From sequence record NZ_CP010801.1: 64,000 bases of DNA. One strand, given 5' to 3'. The translations under genes and the position numbers were made by a program. Below are positions 44,199-63,904 of this stretch, in pieces; within the stretch, counting starts at the first letter, position 1; each line of letters opens with the position of its first letter. A model generated the notes under the pieces. The model made no database searches. It worked only from the letters and a program-made list of their open reading frames with translations, and was not told the origin of the DNA. Source of the stretch: a plasmid.

Positions 44199-44338
44199 GA
44201 CGTTGCGAAATCTTGCTCTTCCTCCGATGTTGGAAACAAAGTATGCTTTACGTTGCGCATCTTGGCAATCTTTATGAAACAAACATATTGCTGATGTTGT
44301 GTGCCAGGCTTTTTCTCTTTCCGTCCTGACAACCAGTC

Positions 44339-44362
44339 CTGAATCCCGGCAATTCCGCCGGT
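44339..44362 (+). promoter_or_regulatory. Upstream module copy 2
   Basis: CAACCAGTCCTGAATCCCGGCAATTCCGCCGGTC. Confidence 0.5.
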
Positions 44363-44380
44363 CCATGACAGGAGAAAGAG

Positions 44381-45394
44381 ATGGAATTCATCGAAGGCAT
44401 CAAGGTGCAATACAAGGAGCTCGTCGCTGACGCCAACGGCCAGTCCTACATTCCGTGGGCCGCTGCGCTCGCCATCGCTGAGCGCCCGCAGCAAAACGTG
44501 GTGATGTGGAAGGGCAATCCTGCGCGTACGTTGCTGGGCGGGGCGGTCGTGGCCATCGACATGAACGGACATCGGACCTGGCTGCCGATCCTCGATGCGC
44601 GCAACGAAGCGGTCCCGACCTCGCGTCTGACGTCTCGCGACGTGAACGACGCGATCAATCGCTGCCGCGCCAAGGCGATTGCCTCGGTGCTTGGTGTTGG
44701 ACTTGGCCTGTACGGCAAGTACGACGAGGCAGCGGCGTTTTTGCGCGCCCTCAACGTAGGTCCAGCAACTGACCTCGCAAAGATGGCGCCCCTGACCGTG
44801 AAAAAGGGGGGTGACAAGGGGCCGTCGTACGTTTCATGGCCCGCCGCGCTGGCGGCATGCCGGATCACCGACCCGGAGTTCAGCTGGGAGGTGATCGAGT
44901 ATGAGTCGGTTGACCCGGTCAGCGGGGAGATTGGCGAGCAGCCGTACGTCGTCATTGGCCAGAGCTATATGGTCTCGGTCAAGGTGACCTACAAGGGCCA
45001 GAGCCACATCGAGATGCTGCCCATCATGGGTGTCGTCGAGGTGAACGGCAAACGGCGCGAGCACATGGCGCTCACGACCCCGACGCCGCACGATTGGAAC
45101 CGCGCCGTCATGCGTTGTCTTGCAAAGGGCATCGCGGTGCAGTCCGGTTATGGCCTGAACGTCTACGCGAAGGAAGACCTGGAGGCGTTGCAGACCACGT
45201 TCGTTGGCAGTGGGTCGCAGCCCGCAGGAGCCTCCGTCGAGGCGATCAACGCGTTGCGCGAAACGCTTTCGCGAGTCGACCGGTCCGAAGACTCGTTGAT
45301 GACCTGGCTCGGCAAGCCCGGCTTGGCGCTTGACACCCTGACCGCAGCGGAGATCCAACGCGCTATGCGTGCGCTGGAACCCAAGGCTGCCTGA
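44381..45394 (+). CDS. Hypothetical protein (possible phage Sak/Rad52-like annealing protein)
   Basis: N-terminal SYIPWAAALAIAER...MWKGNPARTLLGG. Confidence 0.25.
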   Translation: MEFIEGIKVQYKELVADANGQSYIPWAAALAIAERPQQNVVMWKGNPARTLLGGAVVAIDMNGHRTWLPILDARNEAVPTSRLTSRDVNDAINRCRAKAIASVLGVGLGLYGKYDEAAAFLRALNVGPATDLAKMAPLTVKKGGDKGPSYVSWPAALAACRITDPEFSWEVIEYESVDPVSGEIGEQPYVVIGQSYMVSVKVTYKGQSHIEMLPIMGVVEVNGKRREHMALTTPTPHDWNRAVMRCLAKGIAVQSGYGLNVYAKEDLEALQTTFVGSGSQPAGASVEAINALRETLSRVDRSEDSLMTWLGKPGLALDTLTAAEIQRAMRALEPKAA

Positions 45395-45451
45395 CCAACC
45401 AACCGCCCCGACATCAGTATGTCAGGGCGGTTTTTCTTTGCCGGCTTACCG

Positions 45452-45482
45452 CAACCATTTGCGAAACCGGCCTGTTGCCGGA
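45452..45482 (+). promoter_or_regulatory. Upstream module copy 3 (degenerate)
   Basis: CAACCATTTGCGAAACCGGCCTGTTGCCGG. Confidence 0.4.
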
Positions 45483-45498
45483 AAGAAAGGAGAGAGTC

Positions 45499-46038
45499 AT
45501 GAAGAGCAACATCATTGGCCTAGCCGGTATCAAGCGCAGCGGCAAGGACACAGCAGCCAATGCGCTGCGCGCGGCCGGTTACGTGACCGTGGCCTTCGCC
45601 GACGCGCTGCGCGAAGAGATTTTTGCGCAATACCCTCAGGCTCGCAGAATCGCCGATGAGGACAAGGAGAAGCCTCAGGATTTCCTGAGCGGGAAGTCTT
45701 TGCGCGATCTGCTGATCGAAGTTGGAATGGGCCGGCGGGCGCAAGACCCGGACTACTGGGTGAAGATCCTGCGCGATCGCATCCGGGGCCTAGTCGCAAG
45801 CGGAAAGCGCGTGTGCGTCACGGATACGCGCTTGCCCAATGAGTTCGCGATGCTGCGTGAGCTCGACGCCTTCATCGTCTGGATCAATCGGCCTGGCATC
45901 GAGCCAGGGGCGCACGTTACCGAGCAGGACCACTCTTCGCTGTGCGATGCCGTGGTGCACAACGACTCGACGCTGCAGACACTGCACCAGAAGCTCATCG
46001 CCCTGCTGACGCAGATCGACATGGAGGTAGCCGCGTGA
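45499..46038 (+). CDS. Deoxynucleoside-monophosphate kinase-like P-loop protein
   Basis: IIGLAGIKRSGKDT P-loop. Confidence 0.55.
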   Translation: MKSNIIGLAGIKRSGKDTAANALRAAGYVTVAFADALREEIFAQYPQARRIADEDKEKPQDFLSGKSLRDLLIEVGMGRRAQDPDYWVKILRDRIRGLVASGKRVCVTDTRLPNEFAMLRELDAFIVWINRPGIEPGAHVTEQDHSSLCDAVVHNDSTLQTLHQKLIALLTQIDMEVAA

Positions 46039-46322: not shown

Positions 46323-46372
46323 GGAACCGCCGTGCCCGCAAGGCTCGGCGGTTTTTTCTTTGCCCGTGGCCG

Positions 46373-46407
46373 CAACCAATACCGAACCCCCGGGCATTCC
46401 GGGACAT
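46373..46407 (+). promoter_or_regulatory. Upstream module copy 4
   Basis: CAACCAATACCGAACCCCCGGGCATTCCGGGAC. Confidence 0.5.
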
Positions 46408-46423
46408 TTAGGAGCAGATCCAA

Positions 46424-46765
46424 ATGATTGCACCCATTTTCACTCAGGGCTGCCGCCCGATGCTTGCTGCAATGCTGTCGATGCTGGTCTCAATGGCATC
46501 GCAAGCACAAGTGCCGCAGCCTGCGGCAAACGCTCACGATGTAACCGTGGTCACTCTGTACAGCGAATTCCGTCCGGCTCCAGGCACGCTTCGAACCGAA
46601 GACAAGCCTGAGCGTCCGCCGATCCAGATTGTTGGCGGAGGCGTCAAAAGCGCCGGCCCTTCGTGTTGGGACATGGATGAGTCCGGCCAGATCGTTCCTG
46701 TCGCTGGCGAATGCTACGTCCTCCGGTCGGCAGCACCTGGCGAGAAGCCGCCAGTTCGGCAATAA
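46424..46765 (+). CDS. Small secreted protein
   Basis: Signal peptide MLAAMLSMLVSMASQAQV. Confidence 0.3.
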   Translation: MIAPIFTQGCRPMLAAMLSMLVSMASQAQVPQPAANAHDVTVVTLYSEFRPAPGTLRTEDKPERPPIQIVGGGVKSAGPSCWDMDESGQIVPVAGECYVLRSAAPGEKPPVRQ

Positions 46766-47264: not shown

Positions 47265-47323
47265 CATACGTACTAAGCCCGCTTCCTCGATGAGGAGGCG
47301 GGCTTTTTTATGGTCGGGCATGA

Positions 47324-47357
47324 CAACCAACGTGGAACCCCGGCGATTAGCCGGACA
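47324..47357 (+). promoter_or_regulatory. Upstream module copy 5
   Basis: CAACCAACGTGGAACCCCGGCGATTAGCCGGAC. Confidence 0.5.
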
Positions 47358-47368
47358 TCAATCGGGAG

Positions 47369-47896
47369 ATGAAATTGGAAAAAGTCTATTCGCAGGCAGA
47401 ATTTGAGGCGGCCTTGCAGGCTGCTCTGGTCGGCGCCGAGCCGGTGGCTTGGTCTTACGAACTGGCCGGCACCCTGTTAGCTGACGGCCAGTACGGGAAC
47501 TGGCGGCCATATCTGACATGGAGTAAGCCCAACGTGCCGGAGGGCGCAATCCGAAATCTGAAGGCGCTGTGCGAGCGGTCCTCCAGCCATGATGGCGCTG
47601 GGGATCTGAAGCTAGGAGGGTACAGCCGAGAAGACATCGAGGCGATTGCCGACGGGCTCGAATGCTACGACAAGACGGTGAACGTCGGTCCCGTACAGGG
47701 CGAGTTTGACGAGCTCCTCCCTTCGGCGACCGCGGCCGCTGCGAAGGTCTTGCGCGCCATTCTTTCCTCTTCGGCTACTGACCTTTCTGGCCAGCGGGCG
47801 GGCGTGTCGGAGGATGCAGCGCGATGGAACCAGTGTGCCGCCGCGCCCGCACAGCAGCAGGAGCCAACCACTCCAGGCGTGCATTCCGCGCCTTGA
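47369..47896 (+). CDS. Hypothetical protein
   Basis: 175-aa ORF behind module. Confidence 0.35.
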   Translation: MKLEKVYSQAEFEAALQAALVGAEPVAWSYELAGTLLADGQYGNWRPYLTWSKPNVPEGAIRNLKALCERSSSHDGAGDLKLGGYSREDIEAIADGLECYDKTVNVGPVQGEFDELLPSATAAAAKVLRAILSSSATDLSGQRAGVSEDAARWNQCAAAPAQQQEPTTPGVHSAP

Positions 47897-47952
47897 TTTC
47901 GACCAGAGCCCGCTTCCTACATGGAGCGGGCTTTTTCTTCGGCAGCGCGAGA

Positions 47953-47987
47953 CAACCATCCTGGAAAACCGGCGCTCCCGCCGGACC
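47953..47987 (+). promoter_or_regulatory. Upstream module copy 6
   Basis: CAACCATCCTGGAAAACCGGCGCTCCCGCCGGAC. Confidence 0.5.
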
Positions 47988-48003
47988 TTTACAGGAGATC
48001 AAC

Positions 48004-48222
48004 ATGCAAAACGATGTGCCCGCTTTCATCGGCTTGTCTGCGGTGCGCCTGGCCGCGCAAGTCGGCAAGACGCTGGCGCGCATTCCCGTCGAGCGCCAAG
48101 AATTTCTCTTCGGGGCTGGTTCGACACCGGAACCCCAACGCGAGGGCTACGCGTTGACTGCAAAGTGGCCCCGCAAAGCCCGCGCCCCTGGCGCCGCGCA
48201 GCAGGAGCAGGACCATGCGTGA
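48004..48222 (+). CDS. Small hypothetical protein
   Basis: 72-aa ORF. Stop overlaps the next ATG. Confidence 0.25.
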   Translation: MQNDVPAFIGLSAVRLAAQVGKTLARIPVERQEFLFGAGSTPEPQREGYALTAKWPRKARAPGAAQQEQDHA

Positions 48223-48667: not shown

Positions 48668-48727
48668 CTGCTGATGTGCAACCAATCCCGTCTGCTACAG
48701 GCGGGATTTTTTTTTGCCCCCCACTGA

Positions 48728-48762
48728 CAACCACCTGCGAACCTTGGCAATCCCGCCGAGAT
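48728..48762 (+). promoter_or_regulatory. Upstream module copy 7
   Basis: CAACCACCTGCGAACCTTGGCAATCCCGCCGAG. Confidence 0.45.
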
Positions 48763-48777
48763 CCACAGGAGACCTGT

Positions 48778-49584
48778 ATGCCAGGACCAGACTTCTTTCA
48801 AACCATGATGGGCCGCAACTTTTTCGAGGGCACTATGCCGTCGATCGCGCGCAACCTTGCGACGATTGCCGAGGCGCTGAAGCGTAGCAATGAGCTACTC
48901 GAGCAGAAGCCCTCGACAGCGGAAGGTCAGCCGCGCGATGCGATACCGCTGAACAAGCTGCAGCGCATCGCAGTCAGCGGCTATGAGGACGGAACGTATT
49001 CCGCACTGCGGTCGGTCCGTGAGTTCGAAGGAATCGGCGACACGCTGATTCTGGCCATCGTTCGTGAACTAGAGGACGCAGATAGCACGACATGCGCGCT
49101 GAATCGTCTGCAGGGCATGGCCGCTCAGATCTCGCAAGTCGTCGGCGCCATCGAATCGTCCGCTGGCCAGCCGCCGGCAACGGCAGAATGGGCGCCGGAG
49201 AAGGGCGTCATGACCGACGCGCAATTCATTGCCCGTCGTGGTTGTCATTGCCCCTCTTGCGGGAGCAATGACCTTTCCTGCCAGGGGCATATCGAAGGCG
49301 AGGAAGCTACCGCTTCGCAATCGGTGAAGTGCGAAAACTGCAGTGCAACCTGGGTCGACACATATTCGTTGAGCGGATATGCCGAACTGGATGGTGGCAT
49401 TGACCTGAAGTCAGTCCAATCCATTGTCGATGAGGTGCGGAGCCGCGCGCAGACGTACAGATTCGCGATCGGAAGCGAAGTCCAGGCGCGCGAAGCCGTC
49501 AATAAAACTTGCGATCAGGTCGATCCTTCATTGAGTGAGGCCGAAAGAACGATCGCTGTGAAGCTGCTCCGAGCCGCCGATTGA
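48778..49584 (+). CDS. Hypothetical protein with internal Zn-ribbon
   Basis: CHCPSCG...CENC. Confidence 0.35.
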   Translation: MPGPDFFQTMMGRNFFEGTMPSIARNLATIAEALKRSNELLEQKPSTAEGQPRDAIPLNKLQRIAVSGYEDGTYSALRSVREFEGIGDTLILAIVRELEDADSTTCALNRLQGMAAQISQVVGAIESSAGQPPATAEWAPEKGVMTDAQFIARRGCHCPSCGSNDLSCQGHIEGEEATASQSVKCENCSATWVDTYSLSGYAELDGGIDLKSVQSIVDEVRSRAQTYRFAIGSEVQAREAVNKTCDQVDPSLSEAERTIAVKLLRAAD

Positions 49585-49640
49585 TGTTCCACCAAACCGC
49601 CTCGCGAAAGCGCAGGCGGTTTTTTCTTCTTCGCGCTGAG

Positions 49641-49676
49641 CAACCACTCCTGAAAAACCGGCAATCCCGCCGGACT
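49641..49676 (+). promoter_or_regulatory. Upstream module copy 8
   Basis: CAACCACTCCTGAAAAACCGGCAATCCCGCCGGAC. Confidence 0.5.
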
Positions 49677-49691
49677 TTGCAGGAGGAAAAA

Positions 49692-50627
49692 ATGAAGCAG
49701 GTTGCATTTACCACGTCCTCGGGCTCGCCCGACAACGATGCTTGGCACGCTTGGCGTGCGCAGCATTTGGGCGCGTCCGATGCACCGGTGATCGCAGCAG
49801 GACGCGGCTTGTGCAGCAAGCCGTCGTGGGCGCGGTCTCTACACGCCCTCTGGCTGGAGAAAACCGGGCAACTGCCGCCGCAGAAATCGAACTTCGCGAT
49901 GAATCGGGGTCGGCAGTACGAGGAAACTGCCCGCCTGGCGTATGAGGCGAAGACGGGCGAAATGGTGTCGCCTTGCTTCGGCGAGTGCGAACCCTTTCCG
50001 CAGCTTTCGGCATCGTTCGATGGCATGAGCCTGGATGGCAATACGATCGTCGAGATCAAGGTGCCATCCGCGAAGGTTCACGAGATGGCCAAGAATGGCC
50101 AGGTGGTCGATTACTACGTGCCACAAATCGCGCACCAGGCGCTGGTCGCTTGGGGTATGCCTGAGTCCTGGGGCAACGACAAGCGAGCGTTCTTCGTGAG
50201 CTACGACCCGGATAAGGACGAACTGGTCATCGTGCCGGTCGACATGGGCGAACTGGCGATGATGGCGAAGCGGTTGCTGCCGTGTCTGCTGGACTTCTGG
50301 CAGGCGGTGTTCGAGAAACGTCCTCCGCTTGGCGATGGCATGGAGCCGCTTGCGCAAGCCTACCTGGAGCTGGTCGACAGAATTGGCGACCTCGAAGGCG
50401 AGAAAGACGCGCTGCGCGCGCAACTCATTGAGTTGGCAGAGAAGCAGGGTGGCCGCGCCGAAGGCTATGGCGTGTCGGTGATCAAATCCATGGTCAAGGG
50501 CACGATCGACTATGCCAAGGCTGCCAAAGATTTGAACATCGACTTCGAACCGTACCGCAAGCAAGGTAAGGAGACCTGGTACGTGAAGGCCAGCGGCCAG
50601 AGAGAGGGGCAGCAAGCGAGCGCGTGA
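49692..50627 (+). CDS. YqaJ-like viral recombinase-domain exonuclease (PD-(D/E)xK)
   Basis: LGASDAPVIAAG...ASFDGMSLDGNTIVEIKVP. Confidence 0.55.
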   Translation: MKQVAFTTSSGSPDNDAWHAWRAQHLGASDAPVIAAGRGLCSKPSWARSLHALWLEKTGQLPPQKSNFAMNRGRQYEETARLAYEAKTGEMVSPCFGECEPFPQLSASFDGMSLDGNTIVEIKVPSAKVHEMAKNGQVVDYYVPQIAHQALVAWGMPESWGNDKRAFFVSYDPDKDELVIVPVDMGELAMMAKRLLPCLLDFWQAVFEKRPPLGDGMEPLAQAYLELVDRIGDLEGEKDALRAQLIELAEKQGGRAEGYGVSVIKSMVKGTIDYAKAAKDLNIDFEPYRKQGKETWYVKASGQREGQQASA

Positions 50628-50702
50628 TCGTTCGTCAGCTGAATCACACCACCATCACACAACCCGCCAGCACACGCTGGCGGGTTTTTTCATGTGCCGC
50701 GC

Positions 50703-50740
50703 GCAACAACTACAGGGGAAACCGGCGAATCCCCGCCGAA
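50703..50740 (+). promoter_or_regulatory. Upstream module copy 9
   Basis: CAACAACTACAGGGGAAACCGGCGAATCCCCGCCGAAG. Confidence 0.45.
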
Positions 50741-50759
50741 GATGAGAGGAGAACCCCAG

Positions 50760-51137
50760 ATGAAGAACGTAATCGAGGTCGGCGCTGGCCCTTCCTGCGC
50801 GGACGTGGCCCAGGTCGGCGAGGTGAATTTTGCCGTGCGCAATCGTAGCGAGTGCAGAGCATTCATTCGCCAGATCGAGCGCGCCTATGGCCAGCCTCCA
50901 GTTGGCGTGAGTCTGGTGCTGACCACCAATCAGCACGAATTTGGCACCTACCGCGAAGTTGGCATTGAGATCGAGCCGCTTAGCATTGAGCAAGTCCGGA
51001 CGGCTTCGGACTGGGCCAATGCGGTCGAGTCTGATTCCCAGTGCAAGCTGGAGGACTGGGACGCCGAGGCTCTGTTGGAGTTGGGCTTGGAGGCGAATGC
51101 AACGCAGAGCGCTTCGCAGGCTGTCATCCATGGCTGA
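50760..51137 (+). CDS. Hypothetical protein
   Basis: 125-aa ORF. Confidence 0.3.
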   Translation: MKNVIEVGAGPSCADVAQVGEVNFAVRNRSECRAFIRQIERAYGQPPVGVSLVLTTNQHEFGTYREVGIEIEPLSIEQVRTASDWANAVESDSQCKLEDWDAEALLELGLEANATQSASQAVIHG

Positions 51138-51621: not shown

Positions 51622-51706
51622 GCGACTGTAAATCAAGCAACCAGGCCCTGTTCTCTTCGGAGACGGGGCTTTTCTCATTGGCCCGATTTTCTATGTCCCG
51701 GCAGGG

Positions 51707-51741
51707 CAACCACTCTGGAATACAGCCAATCCCGGCTGGAT
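51707..51741 (+). promoter_or_regulatory. Upstream module copy 10 (degenerate palindrome)
   Basis: CAACCACTCTGGAATACAGCCAATCCCGGCTGGA. Confidence 0.4.
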
Positions 51742-51757
51742 ACTCAAGGAGAATTCC

Positions 51758-52468
51758 ATGAGCAATTTGAACAAGTTGTTTGACTTGACCGATGCGCTGA
51801 ACGAGTCGGGCAGCAATGAAGGCTGCGAAGCCGATCTGATGGTGGTGAGTTCCGCGCGACTCTGGGATCTAACGCAATACGTGCGGCTACTCAAAGCAGT
51901 CGAGCAGTCCCAGAATGTGGAAGACCATGCCAACGCCAACAAAATCTGTGAACGCCTCCTCAATTCGGAAGAGCACTCTGTTGAGTCGGCAATTCCAGGG
52001 GTGGCGGAGGATGCGGTGGAGGTGATCAACCGCCTTTCTATCGCTATGAAAGCCACTCAGGTCGCGCTATCGCAAGCCATGCAGCATTCGGAGGAAAGGG
52101 CGCGGTTTGTCAAACAGATTGCTGATCTCAGCATCTGGGATTTCGAAAAGGATGACGGCACCCCGTACAAAGAATGCGAACGGCCTTCGGACGGTTTCCT
52201 CGATTCCCATTGCTGCTTGATGGCGAGCATCGAGGAGGCACGACGGATTGACCTGCGTGCCGCCCTTGAGGCGTTGAATTCGCCGCAGGGCGAGGACAGC
52301 GAGGACTGGACCGGCCGGGTGGAGATGAGCGTCACTGCTGATTCTCCCGAGGAAGCAGCAAAGTTCACGCTCGATGACATTCGCGACCGCGAACTGGAAG
52401 GTATCAACGTCGATGTCCAGAACGTTGGCAGCGGTCGTATCGTGACCGTGTTTGTCAAGAACGCGTAG
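51758..52468 (+). CDS. Hypothetical acidic protein (lower-GC patch)
   Basis: 236-aa ORF. Local GC drop from 51640 to 52640. Confidence 0.35.
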   Translation: MSNLNKLFDLTDALNESGSNEGCEADLMVVSSARLWDLTQYVRLLKAVEQSQNVEDHANANKICERLLNSEEHSVESAIPGVAEDAVEVINRLSIAMKATQVALSQAMQHSEERARFVKQIADLSIWDFEKDDGTPYKECERPSDGFLDSHCCLMASIEEARRIDLRAALEALNSPQGEDSEDWTGRVEMSVTADSPEEAAKFTLDDIRDRELEGINVDVQNVGSGRIVTVFVKNA

Positions 52469-52583
52469 GCCAGTTCACGGATGCGGTTGCCGCTCAAGCG
52501 CAAGCCTCAAAGGATGTCCAATTCGGTGCGCCGAATGAAGCACATAACCACAGAACAGCCGGGCCTCATGCCCGGCTTTTTTA

Positions 52584-53728: not shown

Positions 53729-53784
53729 CAGGCTCCCAAAGATAGTCCCCCGAAGGCCGCAGGTTTTTTTCTGTCCTTACCAGG

Positions 53785-53817: not shown

Positions 53818-53832
53818 CTTGAGGAGAGCCAC

Positions 53833-54702: not shown

Positions 54703-54854
54703 GCAGGCGCATTACGCCTACCCGGACGAGCAATTTCAGTCCGTTCACCTGACCGAAGAACTGGAGGCCTGATCACGGCCCCAAGGACTCGGGCATTGAC
54801 CCGAAAACCGGCCTGCGCGCAAGCGTGGGTCGGTTTTTTCTTTTTGGCATCGCA

Positions 54855-54887
54855 CAACCATTCCCGAATCCCGGCAATTCCGCCGGA
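54855..54887 (+). promoter_or_regulatory. Upstream module copy 12
   Basis: CAACCATTCCCGAATCCCGGCAATTCCGCCGGAC. Confidence 0.5.
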
Positions 54888-54903
54888 CTATAAGGAGCAA
54901 GAC

Positions 54904-55665: not shown

Positions 55666-56982
55666 TCAATTGACGGAGAATGGAGCATGTGAAACTGGCC
55701 GCGCCCAGTTCACCGCGCGAAGTAAAGGCACGCCCCAAATCCGGGCCTGCATGCCGATAGCGCGAGTTTGAGCGACCGCGTTGCCGTCGTGAGCGAACCA
55801 CTGGTTGGCAGCTGAAATGAGCAGCGCCGGGGTCGTGCCATGCGCGGTCATCTGCAGACGCTGGGCAATCAGCGGCCACAATAGCAGATCCTCATAGCAG
55901 ATCGAGATTAACGCCGGGCCGTAGCGAGTCTGCAGGCCGCCCCCGGGTGCCCGCATCGGGTAGTGCTCATCTGCCCACGGTCTCCACATTCCAATTGGCA
56001 TGGGCATTTGCGCTGTGTAGTGCTGGTCCGTTACCAGGTCGAGCAGAGTGTCACGCCCGTCATGCTGGGTGAGTGGATCGGTCTCATAGACTCCCAGCAG
56101 AACCGTCGCCTTCTTCTTCCTTGCCAACTCTGCGATGTCGCTCCAGTAGAAGGCCTGGCCGTCATTCCATTGCGCGTTCGCGCCCTCAGGTAGCACGATC
56201 AGGCGGGCGCCTTCGTCGATCGCGCGGCGCACCTGCGCCTTGAGGTCGTCCTGGCGGGCAAAGCGCTGCTGCAGAGCCTCCGGATAGTCGCCGAGATACG
56301 TCGTCATCGCCCAAGCAAGATCGGGAGCGGCAGGCAGACGATATGTGGCAGCCTGGAGTGCGCCCCATAGTAGCGCTGCGATGAGCGCAGCCGTCACTGC
56401 CTTATTCCCGCTGGTGCGCGCCGTCGAGCTCCAGGACGCGATGGCCAGCAGCGCGGCGATCAGCGCTACGCCAGCCAGCCCCCAACCCGGGAACAGCGCG
56501 CCGGCTGCCAGAAGGGGAGAGGCCATACCAAGTATGCCCAGTGGGGGTACTGCGCCCAGACTCAGTCCGCAAAGGATGCCGATCCAAGGCCGGCCTCGCG
56601 GTGCGAGGAGGAAGGGGGCGGCCATTATCAGCGCCCAGCCTAGCCAGGCCATCACGCCTGGGGCCACCGAGCCTGCGAAGAAGCCAGTCCACAGAGATGG
56701 AATCGCCGAGCCGGCACCGAGATACCAGCCAAAGAACAGCAGTGCCACATCGCGCCGGCGGTGTTTCGGCCGAAATGCCAGCGTCATGGACAGCAGGGCG
56801 AAGCCGAACAGCATGCGCTGGGCATCGTTGGGCGCCAGCCAGCTTGTGCTGATGATGGATTCGATGGAAAACCAGCCGGCGAGCGCGCCGAGGGCGGCCC
56901 AGCTGCCCGCTGTAGACAGGTTGGACCAGGGAAGTGCGGCGCGCAGGCGCGCGCCTACCGGGGACGATGCTGCCGTGCTCAT
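55666..56982 (-). CDS. Polytopic membrane protein with C-terminal carbon-nitrogen hydrolase domain (apolipoprotein N-acyltransferase Lnt-like)
   Basis: About 7 TM segments. LIVLPEGA (catalytic Glu context) and ISICYEDL (catalytic Cys context) of the nitrilase/Lnt superfamily. Confidence 0.5.
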   Translation of the reverse strand: MSTAASSPVGARLRAALPWSNLSTAGSWAALGALAGWFSIESIISTSWLAPNDAQRMLFGFALLSMTLAFRPKHRRRDVALLFFGWYLGAGSAIPSLWTGFFAGSVAPGVMAWLGWALIMAAPFLLAPRGRPWIGILCGLSLGAVPPLGILGMASPLLAAGALFPGWGLAGVALIAALLAIASWSSTARTSGNKAVTAALIAALLWGALQAATYRLPAAPDLAWAMTTYLGDYPEALQQRFARQDDLKAQVRRAIDEGARLIVLPEGANAQWNDGQAFYWSDIAELARKKKATVLLGVYETDPLTQHDGRDTLLDLVTDQHYTAQMPMPIGMWRPWADEHYPMRAPGGGLQTRYGPALISICYEDLLLWPLIAQRLQMTAHGTTPALLISAANQWFAHDGNAVAQTRAIGMQARIWGVPLLRAVNWARPVSHAPFSVN

Positions 56983-58979
56983 GCAGCCGCCATTGCCGCG
57001 CGCGCGGCCTGTACATGCTCGAGCAATACTACTGCCTTCTTCCCCGTGTTCTGTCCACCCATGGCATCCATCACAGCCATGTTCTTGGCGTCCTTGAGCG
57101 CCTCCAGGATCGAGGCCTGGGACAGCCCAGTCAGCACTCCGGCCGCCTGATCCACCCAAGACACCGGATCCCCTTCACCGAGGAAGCCGGCGTGCTCGGA
57201 CGCCCACCAGGCCACCACATCTCGAACGACGTCGCCGTCGGGCAGCCCAATCTCCACACGCGTCCCGAAGCGCCCACCGCGCACGGCTGCAGCGTCGATC
57301 ATGTCCGGATTGTTTGTCGCCGCGATCCACACCACGTCCTGCAGCATGCCGCCGGCGCCGTCGATGAGTTGCAGCAGAGCGTTGGTAGCCTCCTTGGTCG
57401 CGCTCATCGAGCGATCGGCGAGGATGTCATCCGCTTCGTCGATGAAGACAATGGCCGGGCGCATGTTGCTCGCCTTGTCGCGCAGCTTCTGCACGGCGTC
57501 CTCCGACATCAGTTGCTTGCCCGAATACACGAGCAACGGCCACTGGCACGCCTTGGCTAGGGCAGACGCCGCTGCAGTCTTGCCCGTGCCCGGCGGGCCG
57601 GAGAACAGAACGCCCTTGGGCAGAGTGCCGCCTAGTTCCTCGAAACGGTCGAGATCGCGCATCTGCGCAGCGAGGTTTTCCAACCGGCGCTTGACTTCAG
57701 GCGCATAGAACAGCTGGCCGATCTCCTTCGTGCCCTCCGCGGCGCCGCCCTTGTAGCCTTGCAGTGTCCGCATGGCCTTGAGCAGATCCGAGAAATTGAC
57801 CTCGCTTGCATTGCCCGCGCGAGCGATCTCGATGGCGCGTTGGGTGGCTTTCTGGATCGTCGGCACATTCAAGCCGCCCCAGCGCCGCACGAGCCGCTCG
57901 AGCACCCCATTGTCGATGCCGATGCGTTCCTTCTTAAGCTCGATGTCGATCAGGTGGGCGCGGGCTTGCGCGTCGGGCAGCGGCACCTCCACGGGGAAGT
58001 CAAAGCGCGCCGCGCGCACCGCCGCCTCGTCCAGTCGGTCCTTGAAGTTGGTCGCCGCCACCAGCAGCACGCCGGGATGGTGGGTGCGCGTGTCGTCCAC
58101 GAGCGAGAGGAACGTCGTCACCATCCGGTTGTATTCCTCGTAGCTGCCCGATCCGGAGCGCTGGCTGACCAGGCTGTCCGCTTCGTCGAAGAACAGCACC
58201 ACGGGCGCCTGCGCCCAGGCGTCCTCAAACACCTTGCGCAGATTCTCGGTGGTGGCGCCAACCCACTTGGACGCCAGATCGCCGTAGCTCACCTTAATGA
58301 GCCCCAGGGCGGCCTGCCCAGCCAGGGCGCTGGCCATGAGGCTCTTGCCGCCGCCAGGAGGGCCGAACAGCAGGACGCCATTGCCCGATTTCTCTTGCCA
58401 GGCCGACAGCGCACGGCGCATATCGCTCTTGAGGGTCTCCTGACCAACGATGCTGTCGAAGTTCACACTGGGGCGTGCCGCACGGAACTGGAAGTTCTGC
58501 GTCGGCAGCTGCGTCTGATCAGCGGCACCGGCAGGGGCGGTCGCGTATTGTTCCTCCCAGACCAGCAGCAGATCTTGATTGGGCATAACGACTGGCTTGG
58601 TTGTCAGCGCCATGGCTACCGCAAACAGCGTGTAGATCGCGCCAACAATGAGCATGCCCGCGCAGCCCGGGACGATCCAGCCGGCGAGGGAAGGGAAGGT
58701 ACGGGCAGCTGCATGCCACGCGATACCTGTTGCAACCATAAGCACTAGACCGGGGCTGATGGGAAGGTTGTTCAGCTTCATGTCGAGCAGCTGCCGCAAC
58801 AGGTTGAAGAGCGCCGCAACGCTCAGCAGCACCAGCAGTGCGATCAGGCCGAACACCACGCCATGCGTCGCAGCCGGGAACAGGCTGAGCGCGGCCATGA
58901 TGCTCACCGGCACGATGAGCAATGCCGTAAAGCTGCGGGTGCTGTAGACCTCGGCGCTGGCACTCTTGAGTTGGTTCAT
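56979..58979 (-). CDS. Membrane-anchored tandem AAA+ ATPase
   Basis: 4 N-terminal TM. D1 GPPGGGKS/LFFDEAD. D2 GPPGTGKT/VFIDEADD. Arg-finger-like regions. Stop overlaps the downstream gene start. Confidence 0.7.
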   Translation of the reverse strand: MNQLKSASAEVYSTRSFTALLIVPVSIMAALSLFPAATHGVVFGLIALLVLLSVAALFNLLRQLLDMKLNNLPISPGLVLMVATGIAWHAAARTFPSLAGWIVPGCAGMLIVGAIYTLFAVAMALTTKPVVMPNQDLLLVWEEQYATAPAGAADQTQLPTQNFQFRAARPSVNFDSIVGQETLKSDMRRALSAWQEKSGNGVLLFGPPGGGKSLMASALAGQAALGLIKVSYGDLASKWVGATTENLRKVFEDAWAQAPVVLFFDEADSLVSQRSGSGSYEEYNRMVTTFLSLVDDTRTHHPGVLLVAATNFKDRLDEAAVRAARFDFPVEVPLPDAQARAHLIDIELKKERIGIDNGVLERLVRRWGGLNVPTIQKATQRAIEIARAGNASEVNFSDLLKAMRTLQGYKGGAAEGTKEIGQLFYAPEVKRRLENLAAQMRDLDRFEELGGTLPKGVLFSGPPGTGKTAAASALAKACQWPLLVYSGKQLMSEDAVQKLRDKASNMRPAIVFIDEADDILADRSMSATKEATNALLQLIDGAGGMLQDVVWIAATNNPDMIDAAAVRGGRFGTRVEIGLPDGDVVRDVVAWWASEHAGFLGEGDPVSWVDQAAGVLTGLSQASILEALKDAKNMAVMDAMGGQNTGKKAVVLLEHVQAARAAMAAA

Positions 58980-59021: not shown

Positions 59022-60881
59022 GTGTTGCGAGTATATGTAGCAACACTGCGAGAAGCAAGGTATGATAACTATCAAAATCAAGCAGCCAGGGATGCGCGGC
59101 TCGACATCATTAGAATGGCTGCAGATCCAACCCCAGAGCGGTATCCCGGCCGCGCATCGGACGGACCTATGCGAATCGATCTTCCGCACATTGCCTTCTT
59201 GCGCAGCGTCATCGATGGCATGGACGTCAACGCTGCGTTCGACCGTTACCTGTCGCTGATTTATGACGGCCGGCGCGTCGATAGTAGCTTCGTGCGCCAG
59301 ACTCTAATGGAGGTGCATGAGACTTGCGCAGGCGCGGCCTTAGAGGCGGGCAAGCCCGAGCTTGCCAAGCTGTTCGACTTCGACGTGCTCGCACTCACGG
59401 GCAATAGCGAAACTGCGCCTGAAAAGGAGCGGATCACCGTCGGCGGCGAAGCCATCGTTCAAGCGCTCGAGCAGATCGAGACGCAGTTTGCGCGCCGTCC
59501 TGTGCCAAGCGACCCGATCGATGACTGGTTTGCACCGCGTATCGCGTCGTGTCTGCAGGCCAGTGGGATCGTGTCTTTGCACGCGTTGTGCGTACGGATG
59601 ATGAGTCCATACTGGCACACGAGCATCAGCGGCATCGGCCGACTCAAGGCCGAGCGCCTTGAGGCCTTCATGCGCGAGTGGTCGTTGACGACTGATGAGC
59701 GCGCCGCCTGGCCGGCTGTGCCGATCGACACGGGATCGCAGGCCGCCGACAACGCCGAGTTGTTGGTGCCGGCCACGTTTCTCACTTTGGTGAACGTGCT
59801 GGACGATCCGGCCAGTGCAAGTAACGCGCTAGGAGCGCAGACTCATGCCGACGCGGTACGTGCATTTCTGTCGCGCTACAGCGGCCACACCTTGCGCGCC
59901 TACCGCCGCGAAGTCGAGAGGCTGCTGATCTGGGCTACGTTCGAGCGCCGCAAGCGCATTGTCGAGTTCGTGCGACAAGACGTCATTGCTTACCGGGACT
60001 TCCTGGAGGATCCCCAGCCGCGCGAGCACTGGTGCGCGCCGAGGAACATTCCGAAGAACAGCCCAGCGTGGCGTCCACTGGAGGGACCGCTCTCTGAGGC
60101 CAGCCTGCGCCAGTCCACCATCATCATCGGCAAGATGTTCACGTTCTTCGTGCAGACGGGCATCATGCGCCTCAATCCGGCACTTCACCTGCCGCGGCCG
60201 GGCCGGCAGAATTTGCGTCAACAGTTCGGGCGCCGCCTGCTTTCGCGAGCCGATCTGGACCTGCTGCGCGAGCACGCAGGCCCAGGCGCGCGCGGTGAGC
60301 GTACGGTTTTGCTGCTCGATTTGTTGTACGCCACGGGTCTACGCATCTCAGAGGCCGCTGGTGCGATGTTCAAACATGTCATGCCACTCGGCGAGGGTTA
60401 CCTGCTTGGTGTCGTCGGCAAAGGCAAGAAGTATCGGGAGGTGCCTGTTCCCGCCGAAATCATCGATAGGGCACGGCGCATGGCGCATGCGCGCGGAGCC
60501 CAAGGTGCACGTGCCAATGGCGCGTATCTGCTGGGGTGGGTGGGCCCGAAGGGCCTGACCATTTCTCTCGATCCATATGAGGGCGTGAATGCGTCGGTGC
60601 TCGCGCGAGACGTGAAGCAAGCGGCAGAACGCGCTGCCGAGAGCGTGAAGGCTCAAGATCCGGCGCGTGCGGAGCGCCTACTTGGCGCCTCGGCGCATTG
60701 GCTGCGGCATTCGCACGCCTCGCATGCGCTGGAGGCGGGTGTCGCTTTGGCGGCGGTCCAAGCCAACCTGGGCCACACGTCGCTCGTCACCACTAGCGTC
60801 TACGCTACGACCGAGCAAAGTCTGCGCATGCAGCAGATGCAGGAGTTCTGGCAGCAGTCGTCCGGCGATTCCGATCGATAG
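59022..60881 (+). CDS. Large tyrosine recombinase/integrase (IntB13/P4-like)
   Basis: C-terminal HWLRHSHASH...LGHTSLVTTSVYATT (R-H-R-Y). 619 aa. Confidence 0.75.
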   Translation: MLRVYVATLREARYDNYQNQAARDARLDIIRMAADPTPERYPGRASDGPMRIDLPHIAFLRSVIDGMDVNAAFDRYLSLIYDGRRVDSSFVRQTLMEVHETCAGAALEAGKPELAKLFDFDVLALTGNSETAPEKERITVGGEAIVQALEQIETQFARRPVPSDPIDDWFAPRIASCLQASGIVSLHALCVRMMSPYWHTSISGIGRLKAERLEAFMREWSLTTDERAAWPAVPIDTGSQAADNAELLVPATFLTLVNVLDDPASASNALGAQTHADAVRAFLSRYSGHTLRAYRREVERLLIWATFERRKRIVEFVRQDVIAYRDFLEDPQPREHWCAPRNIPKNSPAWRPLEGPLSEASLRQSTIIIGKMFTFFVQTGIMRLNPALHLPRPGRQNLRQQFGRRLLSRADLDLLREHAGPGARGERTVLLLDLLYATGLRISEAAGAMFKHVMPLGEGYLLGVVGKGKKYREVPVPAEIIDRARRMAHARGAQGARANGAYLLGWVGPKGLTISLDPYEGVNASVLARDVKQAAERAAESVKAQDPARAERLLGASAHWLRHSHASHALEAGVALAAVQANLGHTSLVTTSVYATTEQSLRMQQMQEFWQQSSGDSDR

Positions 60882-61808: not shown

Positions 61809-61920
61809 ATTGTTCTCCAGATGGCACCCAGGTGAACGCGGGGGTGCTGTGTCCGCGTGAAATTCATCTTACTTGGCAATACCAACTCGCGCAACACCCT
61901 TTTTTGTCTGTGCCAGCTAA

Positions 61921-61952
61921 CAACTACTTCTGAACCCCCGGGATGTCCGGGA
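61921..61952 (+). promoter_or_regulatory. Upstream module copy 13
   Basis: CAACTACTTCTGAACCCCCGGGATGTCCGGGA. Confidence 0.5.
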
Positions 61953-61968
61953 TTTTCAGGAGACGATC

Positions 61969-62184
61969 ATGGTTTGGCTGATTGCTTTGGTTGGTGCTTC
62001 CGCTCTGCTGTTCTGGTGGCGCCTGCTTGTCGTGATGGTGAAGTCCAATGCTGGCCAGGCGTTTCTACGTCGCGCGTGCTTTTTCGTCGGCGCTGCTTGG
62101 CGTCAGAAGAGTCTGCGACGCGCGGCCAGCCTGACGCGCCAAGCCGAGTGGAAACACACCTGGCTGGGAGGTCATCGTGGTTGA
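61969..62184 (+). CDS. Small membrane protein
   Basis: TM WLIALVGASALLFWW. Confidence 0.25.
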   Translation: MVWLIALVGASALLFWWRLLVVMVKSNAGQAFLRRACFFVGAAWRQKSLRRAASLTRQAEWKHTWLGGHRG

Positions 62185-63196
62185 TCTTCCCGAGCTTGTT
62201 CAGGAACAGGGTTTTGCCCTGCGCAAGCAAGGGAGGACATGGGGCGGCGCCAGCTGCCCCTCGTGTGGTGAGGGGCAGGAAACCTCGAACCGGCTGTGCG
62301 TCTATGTAGGAGACGGTGGGAAATGGCGCTTCAAGTGCCATGCCTGCGGGATCCGAGGGGACGCGGCCGACTTCCTTGCCGTTTCACGCGGCATTTCCTT
62401 GCGTGCCGCGCTTAAGGAGGTCCAGTCTCGTACTGGAGTCGTTCAATCTCAACCCTCCAAGGCTCCCCGCCGAGAGGCGGGTCCAGCGCCTATCGACGAT
62501 GGCGCCAAGGCGCAAGCCATCAACGTCATCGTGGACAAGCTGCTGGATTCGCAGGAAGGCAAGCGCGACGCGCAAGCCTACTTTCGACGCCGGGGCATCT
62601 CGAGCAAGGTGTTCCAGGAGGCGTGGGGGCGAGGCATCATCCGCAGTCTGCCATCGCAGTCGCCGATTGCCACTCGTTGGCTTCGCGAACAGATCGGTAG
62701 CATCCACCTGATGGCGTCAGGCCTACTGCGTCAAGGCGCAGCGTGCCCGGCGGCAGCTTTCCGCCCGATCGTCGGCATCCTGCCGAAGAAGTCTGGCGTG
62801 GAGTTCCGCCTGAACCACGAGGCTGATCGCACGGAGGTCAAGGCGTTGCGCTATGGGCGTTTGGTCTACCCATGGTGGTGGCGGCCGAATGGCGAGATGC
62901 ACCGCCTGATCGTCGTCGAGGGGTACATCGACATGCTCAGTCTGGTTGAGCAGGGGCAAGACAAGGACACCGCCATCATGGCGCTGCCGGGCGCTAATTC
63001 GTGGCGTCTGCCCTGGTTCGAGACCCTGAAGCAGCGCAATCCGAATCTGGAGGTGCTGGTGGCCCTTGATGCGGATGACGCTGGTGATCGCACCGCCGCG
63101 ACGATGATTGAAGCCGTCGCCGGCGTCGGTCTGAAAACCCAGCGCTTGCGCCCCGAGAAAGGCAAAGACTGGAACGAAGCCCTTTTGGCTGCATGA
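62177..63196 (+). CDS. DNA primase (CHC2 Zn-finger plus Toprim)
   Basis: CPSCGEG...CHAC zinc finger. Toprim EGYIDMLS...DADDAGD. GTG start after GGAGG. Confidence 0.6.
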   Translation: MVDLPELVQEQGFALRKQGRTWGGASCPSCGEGQETSNRLCVYVGDGGKWRFKCHACGIRGDAADFLAVSRGISLRAALKEVQSRTGVVQSQPSKAPRREAGPAPIDDGAKAQAINVIVDKLLDSQEGKRDAQAYFRRRGISSKVFQEAWGRGIIRSLPSQSPIATRWLREQIGSIHLMASGLLRQGAACPAAAFRPIVGILPKKSGVEFRLNHEADRTEVKALRYGRLVYPWWWRPNGEMHRLIVVEGYIDMLSLVEQGQDKDTAIMALPGANSWRLPWFETLKQRNPNLEVLVALDADDAGDRTAATMIEAVAGVGLKTQRLRPEKGKDWNEALLAA

Positions 63197-63251
63197 ACCG
63201 AACCCGTCGGCGCGTTTGCGCTGGCGGGTTTTTTTCTTTTTTCCGGCCGAA

Positions 63252-63282
63252 CAACTAATGGGGAACCCCGGCGCATTGCCGG
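63252..63282 (+). promoter_or_regulatory. Upstream module copy 14
   Basis: CAACTAATGGGGAACCCCGGCGCATTGCCGG. Confidence 0.5.
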
Positions 63283-63301
63283 TTATTACCAGGAGCCCAT
63301 C

Positions 63302-63904
63302 ATGAGCGAAAACAACGTGCCTACCCATGGGGTCGAGCGTGCACGTCAGCAGCAGTCCCCACAAGACCAACTGGTTCGAGCGCTTTGCGAACAGGGCGTT
63401 GCCGTCTACCAAGTTGGGAACCTGTTCGAAACGGATTCCAACGGCATTCCCATTCCAGAGTGCGACAGGGACAAGTGGTTTGTCTCTGTGCTCGCAGATT
63501 CTCCTCTCGTGGCGAAGGTAGAGGCCATTCCCCTCTCATCAACTGAGGCCGAAGCATGGGAGCTCGCGGCACGGCACCTGATTCTGACCGATGAGCGCGT
63601 CGAGTTGGGAGGCACGGTTCTACGTCAGAACAATGACGCGGGCAGCGGGGAAGCCTCGAGCGACGAGGCGACAAGCTACCTCCTGAAGAAGCCGCTCAAG
63701 CTTTCGTTCACGGTCGAAGTGCACGATTGCTGTAGCGGCTTTGACGTGGTGCTGCCGGACGGTCGACGTTGCGACGGCCTTGGCTGGGACGAGATGCTTG
63801 GGCAGGTCGCACACCTGACACACCCGAATCTTGGAGCGCCGCGATATGCCATGCGGACCCCCGAAGAGTGGGCTGCGTACAGAGCAGAGATTGCCAGACG
63901 ATAG
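63302..63904 (+). CDS. Hypothetical protein
   Basis: 200-aa ORF behind module. Confidence 0.3.
   Translation: MSENNVPTHGVERARQQQSPQDQLVRALCEQGVAVYQVGNLFETDSNGIPIPECDRDKWFVSVLADSPLVAKVEAIPLSSTEAEAWELAARHLILTDERVELGGTVLRQNNDAGSGEASSDEATSYLLKKPLKLSFTVEVHDCCSGFDVVLPDGRRCDGLGWDEMLGQVAHLTHPNLGAPRYAMRTPEEWAAYRAEIARR

Follow-up and report, generated by a model that had tools for sequence, protein, structure and literature searches.

Which machinery reads a short element that recurs at the head of one small gene after another, and is that element read as DNA or as RNA? The question is raised by a stretch of 64,000 nucleotides (nt) from the plasmid in sequence record NZ_CP010801.1, which was analysed as a whole and is called the window below. 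An initial annotation had described the element as a ‘terminator-plus-promoter-like’ cassette standing before 14 plus-strand genes. We find that the repeat is real and far above chance, and that it is a unit of about 75 bases in which a T-tract, the box CAACYA, the triplet GAA, a GC hairpin, the sequence AGGAG and a start codon follow one another. On the basis of this anatomy we suggest, at roughly even chances, that the unit may be a self-contained, bipartite, non-sigma70 promoter that starts transcription at GAA and is followed by a 5′ stem-loop in the mRNA and a strong Shine-Dalgarno (SD) sequence, the copies together forming one regulon under a dedicated factor.

All 14 plus-strand copies are present at the gene starts given by the initial annotation, both on reading the sequence and on anchoring at CAACYA...GAA. 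A degenerate form of the motif pattern has 12 matches in the window against 0.01 expected, and a stricter one that includes the T-tract has 6 against 0.00. A covariance model of the module, built from nine gap-free copies, returns 17 sites at E <= 3e-4, with no other match across the 64 kilobases (kb); none lies in the pilus/transfer half of the window. A motif search over the array and related genomes, which had been proposed earlier, bears out the array and finds variants of it in relatives, while also yielding more copies and on both strands: contrary to the view that all copies lie on the plus strand, three (anchors 40924, 41255 and 41892, the anchor being the first C of CAACYA) are on the minus strand, where they head three small genes downstream of a RecD2-type helicase. 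The 17 copies are as follows.

20835 to 20906, plus strand: module 1, with T-tract, CAACTA at 20856, GAA, stem CCGGC/GCCGG, AGGAG and ATG at 20904 (63.7 bits)
40868 to 40945, minus strand: module with CAACCA (anchor 40924), GAA, stem TCGGC(A)/(T)GCCGA, AGGAG and ATG at 40870, heading a 174-amino-acid (aa) gene (40.8 bits)
41201 to 41276, minus strand: module with CAACTA (anchor 41255), GAA, stem CCGGC/GCCGG, GGAG and ATG at 41203, heading a 69-aa gene (65.1 bits)
41824 to 41913, minus strand: degenerate module with T8, CAACCA (anchor 41892), GAA, an atypical longer leader, AGGAG and ATG at 41826 (25.8 bits)
44309 to 44383, plus strand: module of the Sak-type single-strand annealing protein (SSAP) gene, in a divergent region, with a T-tract that lacks a terminator hairpin, CAACCA at 44330 and ATG at 44381
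45431 to 45501, plus strand: module of the deoxynucleoside monophosphate (dNMP) kinase operon, with CAACCA at 45452 and ATG at 45499
46352 to 46426, plus strand: module with CAACCA at 46373, stem CCCGG/CCGGG and ATG at 46424
47303 to 47377, plus strand: module with CAACCA at 47324 and likely start TTG at 47375
47932 to 48006, plus strand: module of an operon that includes a DUF3268 gene, with CAACCA at 47953, stem CCGGCG/CGCCGG and ATG at 48004
48707 to 48780, plus strand: module with CAACCA at 48728, stem CTTGGC/GCCGAG with one sense-strand G.U pair, and ATG at 48778
49620 to 49694, plus strand: module of the YqaJ exonuclease gene, with CAACCA at 49641 and ATG at 49692
50686 to 50762, plus strand: module with CAACTA at 50707, stem CGGCG/CGCCG and ATG at 50760
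51686 to 51760, plus strand: module with a T-tract separate from the upstream terminator, CAACCA at 51707, compensated stem CAGCC/GGCTG and ATG at 51758
53764 to 53835, plus strand: module with CAACTA at 53785 and ATG at 53833
54834 to 54906, plus strand: module with CAACCA at 54855 and ATG at 54904
61900 to 61971, plus strand: module of the Toprim/CHC2 primase operon, with CAACTA at 61921, stem CCCGG/CCGGG and ATG at 61969
63231 to 63304, plus strand: module with CAACTA at 63252 and ATG at 63302

Two of these copies had been described differently. The ATG at 47369 had been taken as a start, but it abuts GGGAG without spacing, and the public gene call (173 aa) uses TTG at 47375; the copy before 51758 had been regarded as degraded, but it holds every box and its stem is compensated. 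Nor does the array end with the gene at 63302, as had been supposed: a public contig that reaches 10 kb past the window end (L130) carries at least five further copies in the next 7 kb (anchors 13222, 14433, 15493, 15825 and 16927), with four sites scored by the covariance model (13198-13254, 14409-14466, 15801-15859 and 16903-16960) and a weaker variant site of the module at 15468-15505. Since the minus-strand trio heads genes downstream of the helicase, two arrays diverge from the intergenic region at 44.2-44.3 kb, and in all about 25 module-headed units lie on this Ralstonia plasmid of around 190 kb.

The anatomy was tabulated from 21 copies, position 0 being the first C of CAACYA.

-23: G, in 17 of 21 copies
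-21 to -17: T-tract, in 16 of 21 at -21 and in 20-21 of 21 at -20 to -17
-1: A or G, in 20 of 21
0 to +5: CAACYA, near invariant
+7: T, in 14 of 21
+11 to +13: GAA, in 20 of 21
0-3 nt past GAA: start of the hairpin, in all copies

The core had earlier been written as (T)GACAACCA, three nt and CTGAA; the table gives CAACYA-N5-GAA instead, with TGA not conserved. From T-tract to CAACYA the distance is 16 nt in 20-21 of the 21 copies, while in relatives it is 17 nt in most copies of the variant arrays L141 and L142 and 15-18 nt across a third (L155). The gap between CAACYA and GAA is 5 nt here, and 4 nt after a six-base box in L141 and L155; the gap from GAA to the hairpin, 0-3 nt here, reaches 8 nt in relatives. 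The hairpin is followed after 6-12 nt by the SD, and the start codon lies 6-8 nt past AGGAG. Mean column identity is 61%, with only the motif columns kept and the spacers, which are GC-rich but otherwise unconserved, random. The upstream half of the unit is therefore rigid in its spacing and the downstream half loose, and this rigid-then-flexible geometry is what a DNA-recognised promoter, with RNA features following it, would give.

It is in this position-specific conservation that the idea of a generic repeat or mobile element (of the repetitive extragenic palindrome (REP) or miniature inverted-repeat transposable element type, or attC-like), unrelated to expression, meets its main difficulty, such that we regard it as hardly credible. 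There are, to be sure, many intergenic copies, and a tyrosine recombinase gene (59022-60881) lies within the array. But spacers and stems are unrelated from copy to copy, so these are not decaying copies of one sequence; every copy is oriented toward an SD and a start codon, with the SD 6-12 nt away, which also speaks against the host-wide REP-like feature that the initial annotation had held up as its own undoing. The module is missing from the transfer/pilus half, and a search of viral and metagenome collections with the strict pattern gave zero matches. As to an integron attC site in particular, no R″/R′ GTTRRRY core is present, CAAC has no inverse GTTG partner, the conserved boxes lie outside the palindromes, and the recombinase is of the DUF3701/phage-integrase type.

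The T-tract has a double life. When the 58 nt upstream of each of the 17 window copies were folded, a strong, GC-rich terminator hairpin (-18 to -32 kcal/mol) was found directly abutting the T-tract in 11 of them, whereas the T-tract itself was present in 17 of 17.

47275 to 47305, plus strand: intrinsic terminator hairpin whose T-run is the T-tract of the next module (an example)
48684-48708, 50661-50686 and 54803-54838: further overlaps of terminator T-run and T-tract
Copies anchored at 45452, 46373, 47953, 49641, 63252, 41255 and 40924: the same overlap, seen by folding

At the remaining copies (44330, 61921, 51707, 53785, 20856 and 41892) the hairpin is absent or displaced. The gene upstream of 44330 and of 61921 is divergent and no hairpin is present, and still the T-tract stands in register; at 51707 some 25 nt separate the T-tract from the real terminator on its upstream side. 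In L141, before gene 16565, the true terminator has its own T-run and, 12 nt on, a separate CTTTTTC occupies the canonical distance, and in two related loci whose promoter regions are divergent and hold no terminators (L125 and L128) TTT is kept at -22 to -19. The T-tract is part of the unit and not merely the tail of a terminator; because it stays in register where the hairpin is lacking, the terminator would seem to borrow an element that the unit needs anyway. The notion of a terminator-plus-promoter-like cassette, making each small operon a unit of its own, is supported by these findings.

The hairpin has a stem of 4-7 base pairs (bp) and a loop of 3-6 nt. Its sequence had been described as a fixed palindrome, but at least nine different stems, all of them perfectly paired, occur in this plasmid family: those of the plasmid itself include CCGGC/GCCGG, CCCGG/CCGGG, CGGCG/CGCCG, CAGCC/GGCTG, CTGGC/GCCAG, TCGGC/GCCGA and CTTGGC/GCCGAG, and close relatives add CCGC/GCGG, CGGC/GCCG and CCATCGC/GCGATGG. 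In the alignment fitted to the covariance model, 111 of 111 cells are paired (100%) and four of the five pairs show double changes, a result reached by 0 of 500 shuffles and nowhere near approached by slid registers. A scan with a looser pattern over the window and nine related loci yields around 40 T-tract-bearing sites with more than 20 different stems, comprising 210 Watson-Crick pairs, 3 G.U and 0 A.C, counts that are approximate since they include a stray match in a coding region (window 12726). Because the stem sequence varies freely (from CCGGC to ATCGC, for example) while complementarity stays, the palindrome is a folded strand rather than a protein operator, and the operator for a dimeric regulator that the initial annotation had offered is not borne out. 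Its alternative of a stem-loop in the 5′ untranslated region is the best of the three that it offered: all 14 plus-strand leaders, when folded as RNA, form the hairpin, 3-5 nt from the proposed 5′ end, and leave the SD mostly unpaired.

A regulator might nonetheless bind elsewhere in the unit. CAAC...GAAC can be read as a direct repeat with an 11-bp period that, with or without the T-tract, would serve as a double-stranded operator or activator site for a plasmid protein of the ribbon-helix-helix (RHH) or winged-helix kind, switching a promoter read by the host, with co-ordinated repression in the donor and a burst of expression after transfer (zygotic induction), in the manner of Reg576 of p576 or ArdK/CUP of pKM101. 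Such SAAC repeats, one helical turn apart, would be typical of regulators that bind in tandem; NikA-like RHH and Xre-type helix-turn-helix (HTH) proteins are present; and a dual heptamer operator is found at four establishment-gene promoters of plasmid p576 (PMC6294495). We nevertheless think this explanation unlikely, as nothing links any candidate protein to the site, the covariation of the hairpin is left unexplained, and there is no host-type -10/-35 to be modulated, so that a repressor-only model leaves the promoter itself unaccounted for.

If a strand folds, it may be asked which one. All three wobbles are G.U on the sense strand (p about 0.125), a weak hint that the folding strand is the mRNA-sense one. 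This bears on a further possibility, namely that the unit is a single-stranded DNA (ssDNA) signal on the transferred strand in the recipient, either a miniature ssDNA promoter or a primase start opposite TTC (GAA), giving early transcripts and/or primers. Strand bias (at least 19 plus against 3 minus copies), the structural conservation of the hairpin, a Toprim/CHC2 primase gene inside the array and the precedent of ssDNA promoters (Frpo) in leading regions (PMC11541004) all lend it some colour. Yet three copies do lie on the other strand, the wobbles fall in the sense and not the template strand (in only three cases), and each unit is so closely tied to an SD and a start codon that expression, not priming, is indicated. 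Nor could a hairpin of this size come near to re-forming the duplex -35/-10 that Frpo restores: conserved folding is confined to the terminator and the 4-7 bp stem, neither with promoter hexamers, and an Frpo-type promoter was rejected for this reason. We consider an ssDNA signal of either kind quite improbable.

What kind of promoter, then, could the unit be? A consensus scan for sigma70 found no site at any module, though it did find a good one for the Xre-RES toxin-antitoxin pair (window 52557-53728), the only unit of the array without a module.

52557 to 52612, plus strand: exception formed by the Xre-RES pair, with a terminator at 52557-52577 followed by TTGCCA-17-TATGAT at 52584-52612, and no module

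That the pair lacks the module had been noticed before; it carries an ordinary sigma70-like promoter instead, which supports the view of it as a later insertion. In a position weight matrix (PWM) scan of 23 aligned copies the mean -10 score is below zero at every position, and with no -10 in the unit the earlier judgement that this is not ordinary sigma70 stands. Scored as a -35, the T-tract does so weakly, with a mean of +3.3 bits at -19 and 11 of the 23 copies above 3 bits; in relatives the same region reads TTTACN. Neither the consensus nor the PWM scan finds a TAnnnT element upstream of the hairpin.

The initial annotation had likened the GAAC box to the -35 of an extracytoplasmic function (ECF) sigma, with the palindrome filling a spacer of 16-17 nt and the -10 just before the SD. 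GGAAC- and TGAAC-like pentamers do occur in many copies; but the stretch 16-17 nt downstream, after the hairpin, is unconserved (tccatg, aagaaa and cattta-type sequences) and lies 0-6 nt from AGGAG, placing the start in or after an SD that hardly varies and stands at the right distance from the start codon, and the better conserved CAACYA and T-tract are ignored. An ECF promoter of this layout is accordingly very improbable. With CAAC as the -35 instead, the -10 would fall in the variable hairpin, and for a -10 inside the hairpin more generally, stems such as CCGCCG...CGGCGG hold nothing -10-like and the SD would likewise be lost. On inspection of the aligned copies, sigma54 (TGGCAC-N5-TTGC, with GG and GC 10 nt apart) was rejected on both strands, the spacings being 7 or 13 nt, as were sigma32, sigma28, IHF, OmpR/PhoB-type boxes, the vir box and the hrp box, for wrong spacing or unconserved partner elements. 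The BisDC motif of ICEclc, a 27-bp element about 150 bp upstream of a mapped start (determined for one promoter), has a different architecture.

As no -10 lies upstream of the hairpin and a downstream one would strip the SD from the mRNA, the start should lie upstream of the hairpin, where the only conserved elements are the T-tract, CAACYA and GAA. The context of module 61921 is instructive here: it has no adjacent gene on the same strand, no terminator and no sigma70-like site upstream, so the unit itself must supply the promoter, the sole alternative being antisense read-through of 1 kb from the integrase gene.

Module 61921 also bears on the rival that we take most seriously, though we still hold it to be doubtful: that the unit is a cis element acting in RNA, on read-through transcripts from a few ordinary promoters (such as a divergent sigma70-like pair at 44240-44290), either by reloading a nut-like antiterminator after each terminator or by control of processing or translation. 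A linear box and a 5-bp GC hairpin in terminator-punctuated arrays resemble lambda nut anatomy; both arrays radiate from one divergent region with sigma70-like matches; the wobbles lie on the sense strand; and a related Azonexus plasmid has ops-like DUF3085 RNA elements in comparable arrays. The loops cut both ways. About half read AAUCCC, AAUUCC, AUUUC or AUUCC, even in distant relatives (examples are window 44351-44356, 48749-48754, 49663-49668 and 51729-51734, L125 9972-9977 and L155 11175-11180); one is CUCC and the rest are unrelated, making a loop-reading protein unlikely. The common loop sequences are also partly complementary to the GGA of the SD. It is difficult to see why an RNA signal would need a T-tract 16-17 nt away, beyond an unconserved spacer. 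The T-tract would usually be the 3′ end of a terminated transcript, and upstream of module 61921 and of the copies in L125 and L128 no convincing promoter is seen from which read-through could come. No NusG/RfaH, N or Q homologue is found among the annotated proteins. Rfam 15 gives 0 matches at the gathering threshold in the window, and over 40.5-56 kb only chance-level ones, of which the best, SorX, reaches 27 bits where the gathering score is 46.6; ops-like GGTAGC elements show no enrichment in the window (64 against 64 expected).

Returning to a promoter that starts at GAA, we infer from geometry where transcription starts, that the unit is a promoter, what the hairpin does and that a factor exists, as follows. 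RNA polymerase (RNAP) with a dedicated specificity factor would bind two blocks separated by 16-17 bp, the T-tract in the place of a -35 and CAACYA (GCAACTY in relatives) in that of a -10, and begin transcription at the A of GAA(C), about 7 nt downstream of CAACYA; a purine does stand 7 nt past the second block. The layout is that of the sigma70 promoter family, but the reader would not be sigma70 itself. The nascent RNA would fold at once into a near-terminal stem-loop with 3-5 unpaired 5′ nt, which may shield the message against 5′-end-dependent decay and insulate the SD from its upstream context, leaving the strong AGGAG to drive translation. The next terminator would then end the unit on the T-tract of the following one, such that a single T-run serves as terminator tail and as upstream promoter element. 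Every unit having the same promoter, the 25 or so units would form one regulon, and their phage-like gene content fits a co-ordinately switched establishment or recombination programme. The factor itself could be an alternative sigma, or an activator or RNAP-modifying protein, presumably encoded outside the sequence examined.

Several points weigh against such a promoter. Its assignment is drawn wholly from geometry, and we know of no sigma specificity that CAACYA as a -10 and TTTTT as a -35 would fit. About 75 kb of the plasmid and about 100 kb of related contigs yielded no sigma, RNAP or clear activator, and dependence on a plasmid factor would be awkward if establishment genes are needed at once in a naive recipient. 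Just upstream of the 44330 cassette there is a sigma70-like match (44262-44289, 9/12) that would allow read-in transcription, although 9/12 matches occur at about the chance rate across the region. Finally, the hairpin energies are modest, at about -9 to -10 kcal/mol, with z-scores of single leaders that are mostly unremarkable, and the covariation was counted, as said, on an alignment fitted to the model.

The search for the factor comprised Pfam and NCBIfam scans of around 60 proteins from the window and its relatives, precomputed Pfam assignments on public gene calls, a PDB sequence search with a 735-aa orphan, and an all-against-all comparison of open reading frames (ORFs) across 10 related loci. 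No sigma, RNAP, NusG/RfaH or N/Q-like protein came out of these scans. Public annotation and the scans agree with the initial annotation that no regulator is visible in the window, and the look for an ECF sigma or activator elsewhere on the element, which it had proposed, brought up no sigma or clear activator in the roughly 75 kb of plasmid covered. Two candidate regulators, neither with a link to the site, are the NikA-like RHH protein and, where the array ends, an Xre-type HTH protein of 200 aa (L130 18822-19424).

With the YqaJ gene as a handle, relatives were found in which the module stands before YqaJ homologues of 36-70% identity in different gene neighbourhoods. Single, diverged copies head the homologues of four loci, and variant arrays occur in four more.

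L123: YqaJ of 70% identity; CAACCActcctGAA identical, down to N5
L124: YqaJ of 49% identity; TAACTA, stem CCGC/GCGG
L125: YqaJ of 40% identity; GCAACTC
L128: YqaJ of 44% identity; GCAACTC-N4-GAA
L141: variant array of at least 6 units, 64% GC
L142: variant array of about 8 units, 53% GC
L144: variant array of 2 units in 2.4 kb
L155: variant array of at least 4 units on a 168-kb metagenome contig

In the variant arrays the unit takes the form (C/G)TTTTT(A/C)-N16/17-(G)CAACT(C/T)-N4/5-GAAC-hairpin-AGGAG, and the elements that hold them, of 53-64% GC, have the same DNA-metabolism genes as the plasmid. Homology between L123 and the window starts at CAACCA, the upstream terminator being unrelated, and the unit therefore travels with its downstream gene, as a promoter and leader would; such a layout would ease the shuffling of cassettes. 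The proteins common across these elements are YqaJ, a TraB-like membrane protein, a double-AAA ATPase, RecD2, a Sak-type SSAP and one 165-aa orphan, the last being the product of the gene behind the 41892 module, conserved in L141 and L155. L141 and L155 have a block of RdgC, RecD2 helicase, Sak-SSAP and YqaJ, all of which except RdgC occur on the window plasmid too, and the TraB-like protein and the double-AAA ATPase recur in most related loci. Their locus in the window is 55666-58979 on the minus strand; the TraB-like protein (438 aa) adjoins YqaJ homologues in five related loci, and the double-AAA ATPase (666 aa) accompanies it in three of those five.

Beyond this circle the distribution thins out. 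Among PLSDB plasmids there is no near match to the array or to the pilus region, and no module at the sensitivity of BLAST; distant and protein-level matches led to plasmids that lack the module and have other recurrent upstream motifs. A genome-wide motif scan was uninformative on distribution: among the matches listed there were single, evidently chance ones in unrelated phyla, and two matches in 2 of the 120 loci listed, both inside repeated genes.

In pBVIE01 (L136), a plasmid of C. metallidurans Ni-2 (L137) and Methylibium RPME01 (L138), many small genes are preceded by a shared GTTnnGCATCTC, a small, variable GC hairpin and an SD, often just past a terminator; this is an analogous architecture with a different recognition sequence. 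In the Azonexus hydrophilus plasmid NZ_CP151407 (L139), at 9300-20100 and 30600, each array gene is preceded by ‘CAACC + multi-stem element + SD’; three sites match the Rfam DUF3085 RNA (the best at 46.8 bits, gathering score 40.6), and the conserved 5′ end of that motif, CGGUAGCUGG, resembles the RfaH ops element. In the window itself, TGGTAGCTGGTTTTCACCGG...CCAGC at 32100-32145 on the minus strand resembles the 5′ half of the DUF3085 RNA motif, below any threshold. It may be that cassette-style gene heads are a general habit of Burkholderiales/Rhodocyclales megaplasmids, with a recognition sequence that varies by family.

As to the setting, exact copies of window proteins are found in Ralstonia pickettii, mannitolilytica, insidiosa and thomasii, some of them flagged ‘(plasmid)’, and base 1 of the window corresponds to about position 4041 of contig JBJKIH010000003.1 in GCA_045764145.1, a plasmid contig of about 187-190 kb. 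Outside the arrays the main features are these.

1-12.3 kb: IncI-like thin-pilus cluster with TcpQ, a secretin, PilO, two T2SSE ATPases, T2SSF and a shufflon-type PilV
About 14 kb: NikA-like gene, the only hint at an oriT
23232-28726: possible DNA-modification cluster, with a C5 cytosine methyltransferase (24338-25255), a nucleoside 2-deoxyribosyltransferase (25269-25817), DUF5131 (26155-27201), a protein like phosphoadenosine phosphosulphate (PAPS) reductase (27386-28726) and, on the opposite strand, a 462-aa orphan
33-40 kb: PIN/Phd pair, integrase, ParA/ParB and a RepA_C replication gene
41952-44366, minus strand: RecD2-type helicase

The module-headed genes include those for the single-strand annealing protein, YqaJ exonuclease, dNMP kinase, primase, a MoxR/VWA pair and NinX, the genes neighbouring the helicase and many orphans. 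Directly at the window end (63975-64000; L130 10680-12871) an IS21-family element (rve transposase and IstB) is inserted, with a CAGAAAGGA target duplication, splitting a gene head of the form GGACAACCAGAAAGGA...ctcatcATG. Short stretches identical to genes of the plasmid appear in public records labelled E. coli, Klebsiella, Legionella, Streptomyces and others, which fits contamination by Ralstonia, a frequent problem in sequencing projects.

Synthesising the above, we would put forward, tentatively and at well short of even chances, a more far-reaching proposal: that a family of conjugative-type plasmids in the Beta-, and possibly the Gammaproteobacteria runs an orthogonal transcription system, in which a bipartite T-tract/(G)CAACTY promoter, passed over by the host holoenzyme, would be recognised by a dedicated protein (a sigma factor, or one that modifies or resembles RNAP), so insulating phage-like DNA-metabolism and establishment genes in terminator-promoter-5′ hairpin-SD cassettes that can be shuffled between plasmids. 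Were the start site and the factor to be confirmed, this would amount to a plasmid-private transcription channel, and it opens the question of how large plasmids hold back or synchronise their recombination and replication genes without recourse to the promoters of the host. Some 25 natural promoter variants, together with natural compensatory mutants of the hairpin, are at hand to work with; in practical terms the unit offers a compact, naturally insulated expression cassette, and a sequence tag by which members of this plasmid family may be recognised.

Plasmid establishment genes headed by co-regulated promoter cassettes are already known, and it is against these that the present unit should be set. 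The CUP repeats of the leading region of the IncN plasmid pKM101, reportedly described by Delver and Belogurov in 1997, likewise place one regulatory cassette before many small leading-region or establishment-type genes, making of them a single regulon; they are said to be a few hundred bp long, with an ordinary sigma70 promoter and a plasmid-encoded repressor, whereas the unit here is about 75 nt, lacks a sigma70 -10, uses one T-tract jointly with the terminator before it and carries a covarying 5′ hairpin. In the Bacillus plasmid p576, canonical sigmaA promoters are overlaid by a dual TTATCCC operator for the RHH repressor Reg576 (PMC6294495). There too one short cis motif stands at several putative establishment-gene promoters, allowing co-ordinated, transient expression (PMC6294495), but no canonical promoter is seen here and the phylum is a different one. 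On the present plasmid the repeated element stands before more than 20 operons, which may form an establishment regulon of the CUP or Reg576 type.

Phage promoter sets (T7 class II/III; T4 late TATAAATA) are similar in that a conserved, non-host promoter precedes each DNA-metabolism unit and hairpins stand at the beginning or end of the transcripts; here, however, the scans gave no RNAP or sigma of phage type, the replicon is a conjugative-type plasmid, and a bipartite geometry of 16-17 bp is closer to the sigma70 family than to what a single-subunit phage RNAP would read. The lambda nut site (boxA and boxB) shares the linear box followed by a 5-bp GC hairpin, and the many terminators, but differs in that the loop here is unconserved in half of the copies, the sites number dozens and not two, the T-tract stands at a fixed spacing, and there is neither an N protein nor a Nus-recruiting boxA consensus. 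Frpo of F and ColIb-P9 also serves plasmid establishment-type genes through a folded single strand; it is, though, an imperfect hairpin of about 300 nt that rebuilds a duplex sigma70 promoter, in contrast to a 4-7 bp stem without promoter hexamers. The stabilising 5′ stem-loop of the ompA type resembles the present hairpin in lying a few nt from the (here proposed) mRNA 5′ end next to an accessible SD, with the difference that in our case the position relative to that end is predicted.

Set beside all of these, what appears to be new is a promoter grammar that would fit none of the sigma specificities tested, the re-use of a terminator T-run, and the conservation of a variant form across divergent elements. 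The cassette is, in sum, a real, highly non-random and previously undescribed variant of the plasmid regulon promoter cassettes typified by CUP and Reg576, with its role as a promoter standing as our hypothesis.

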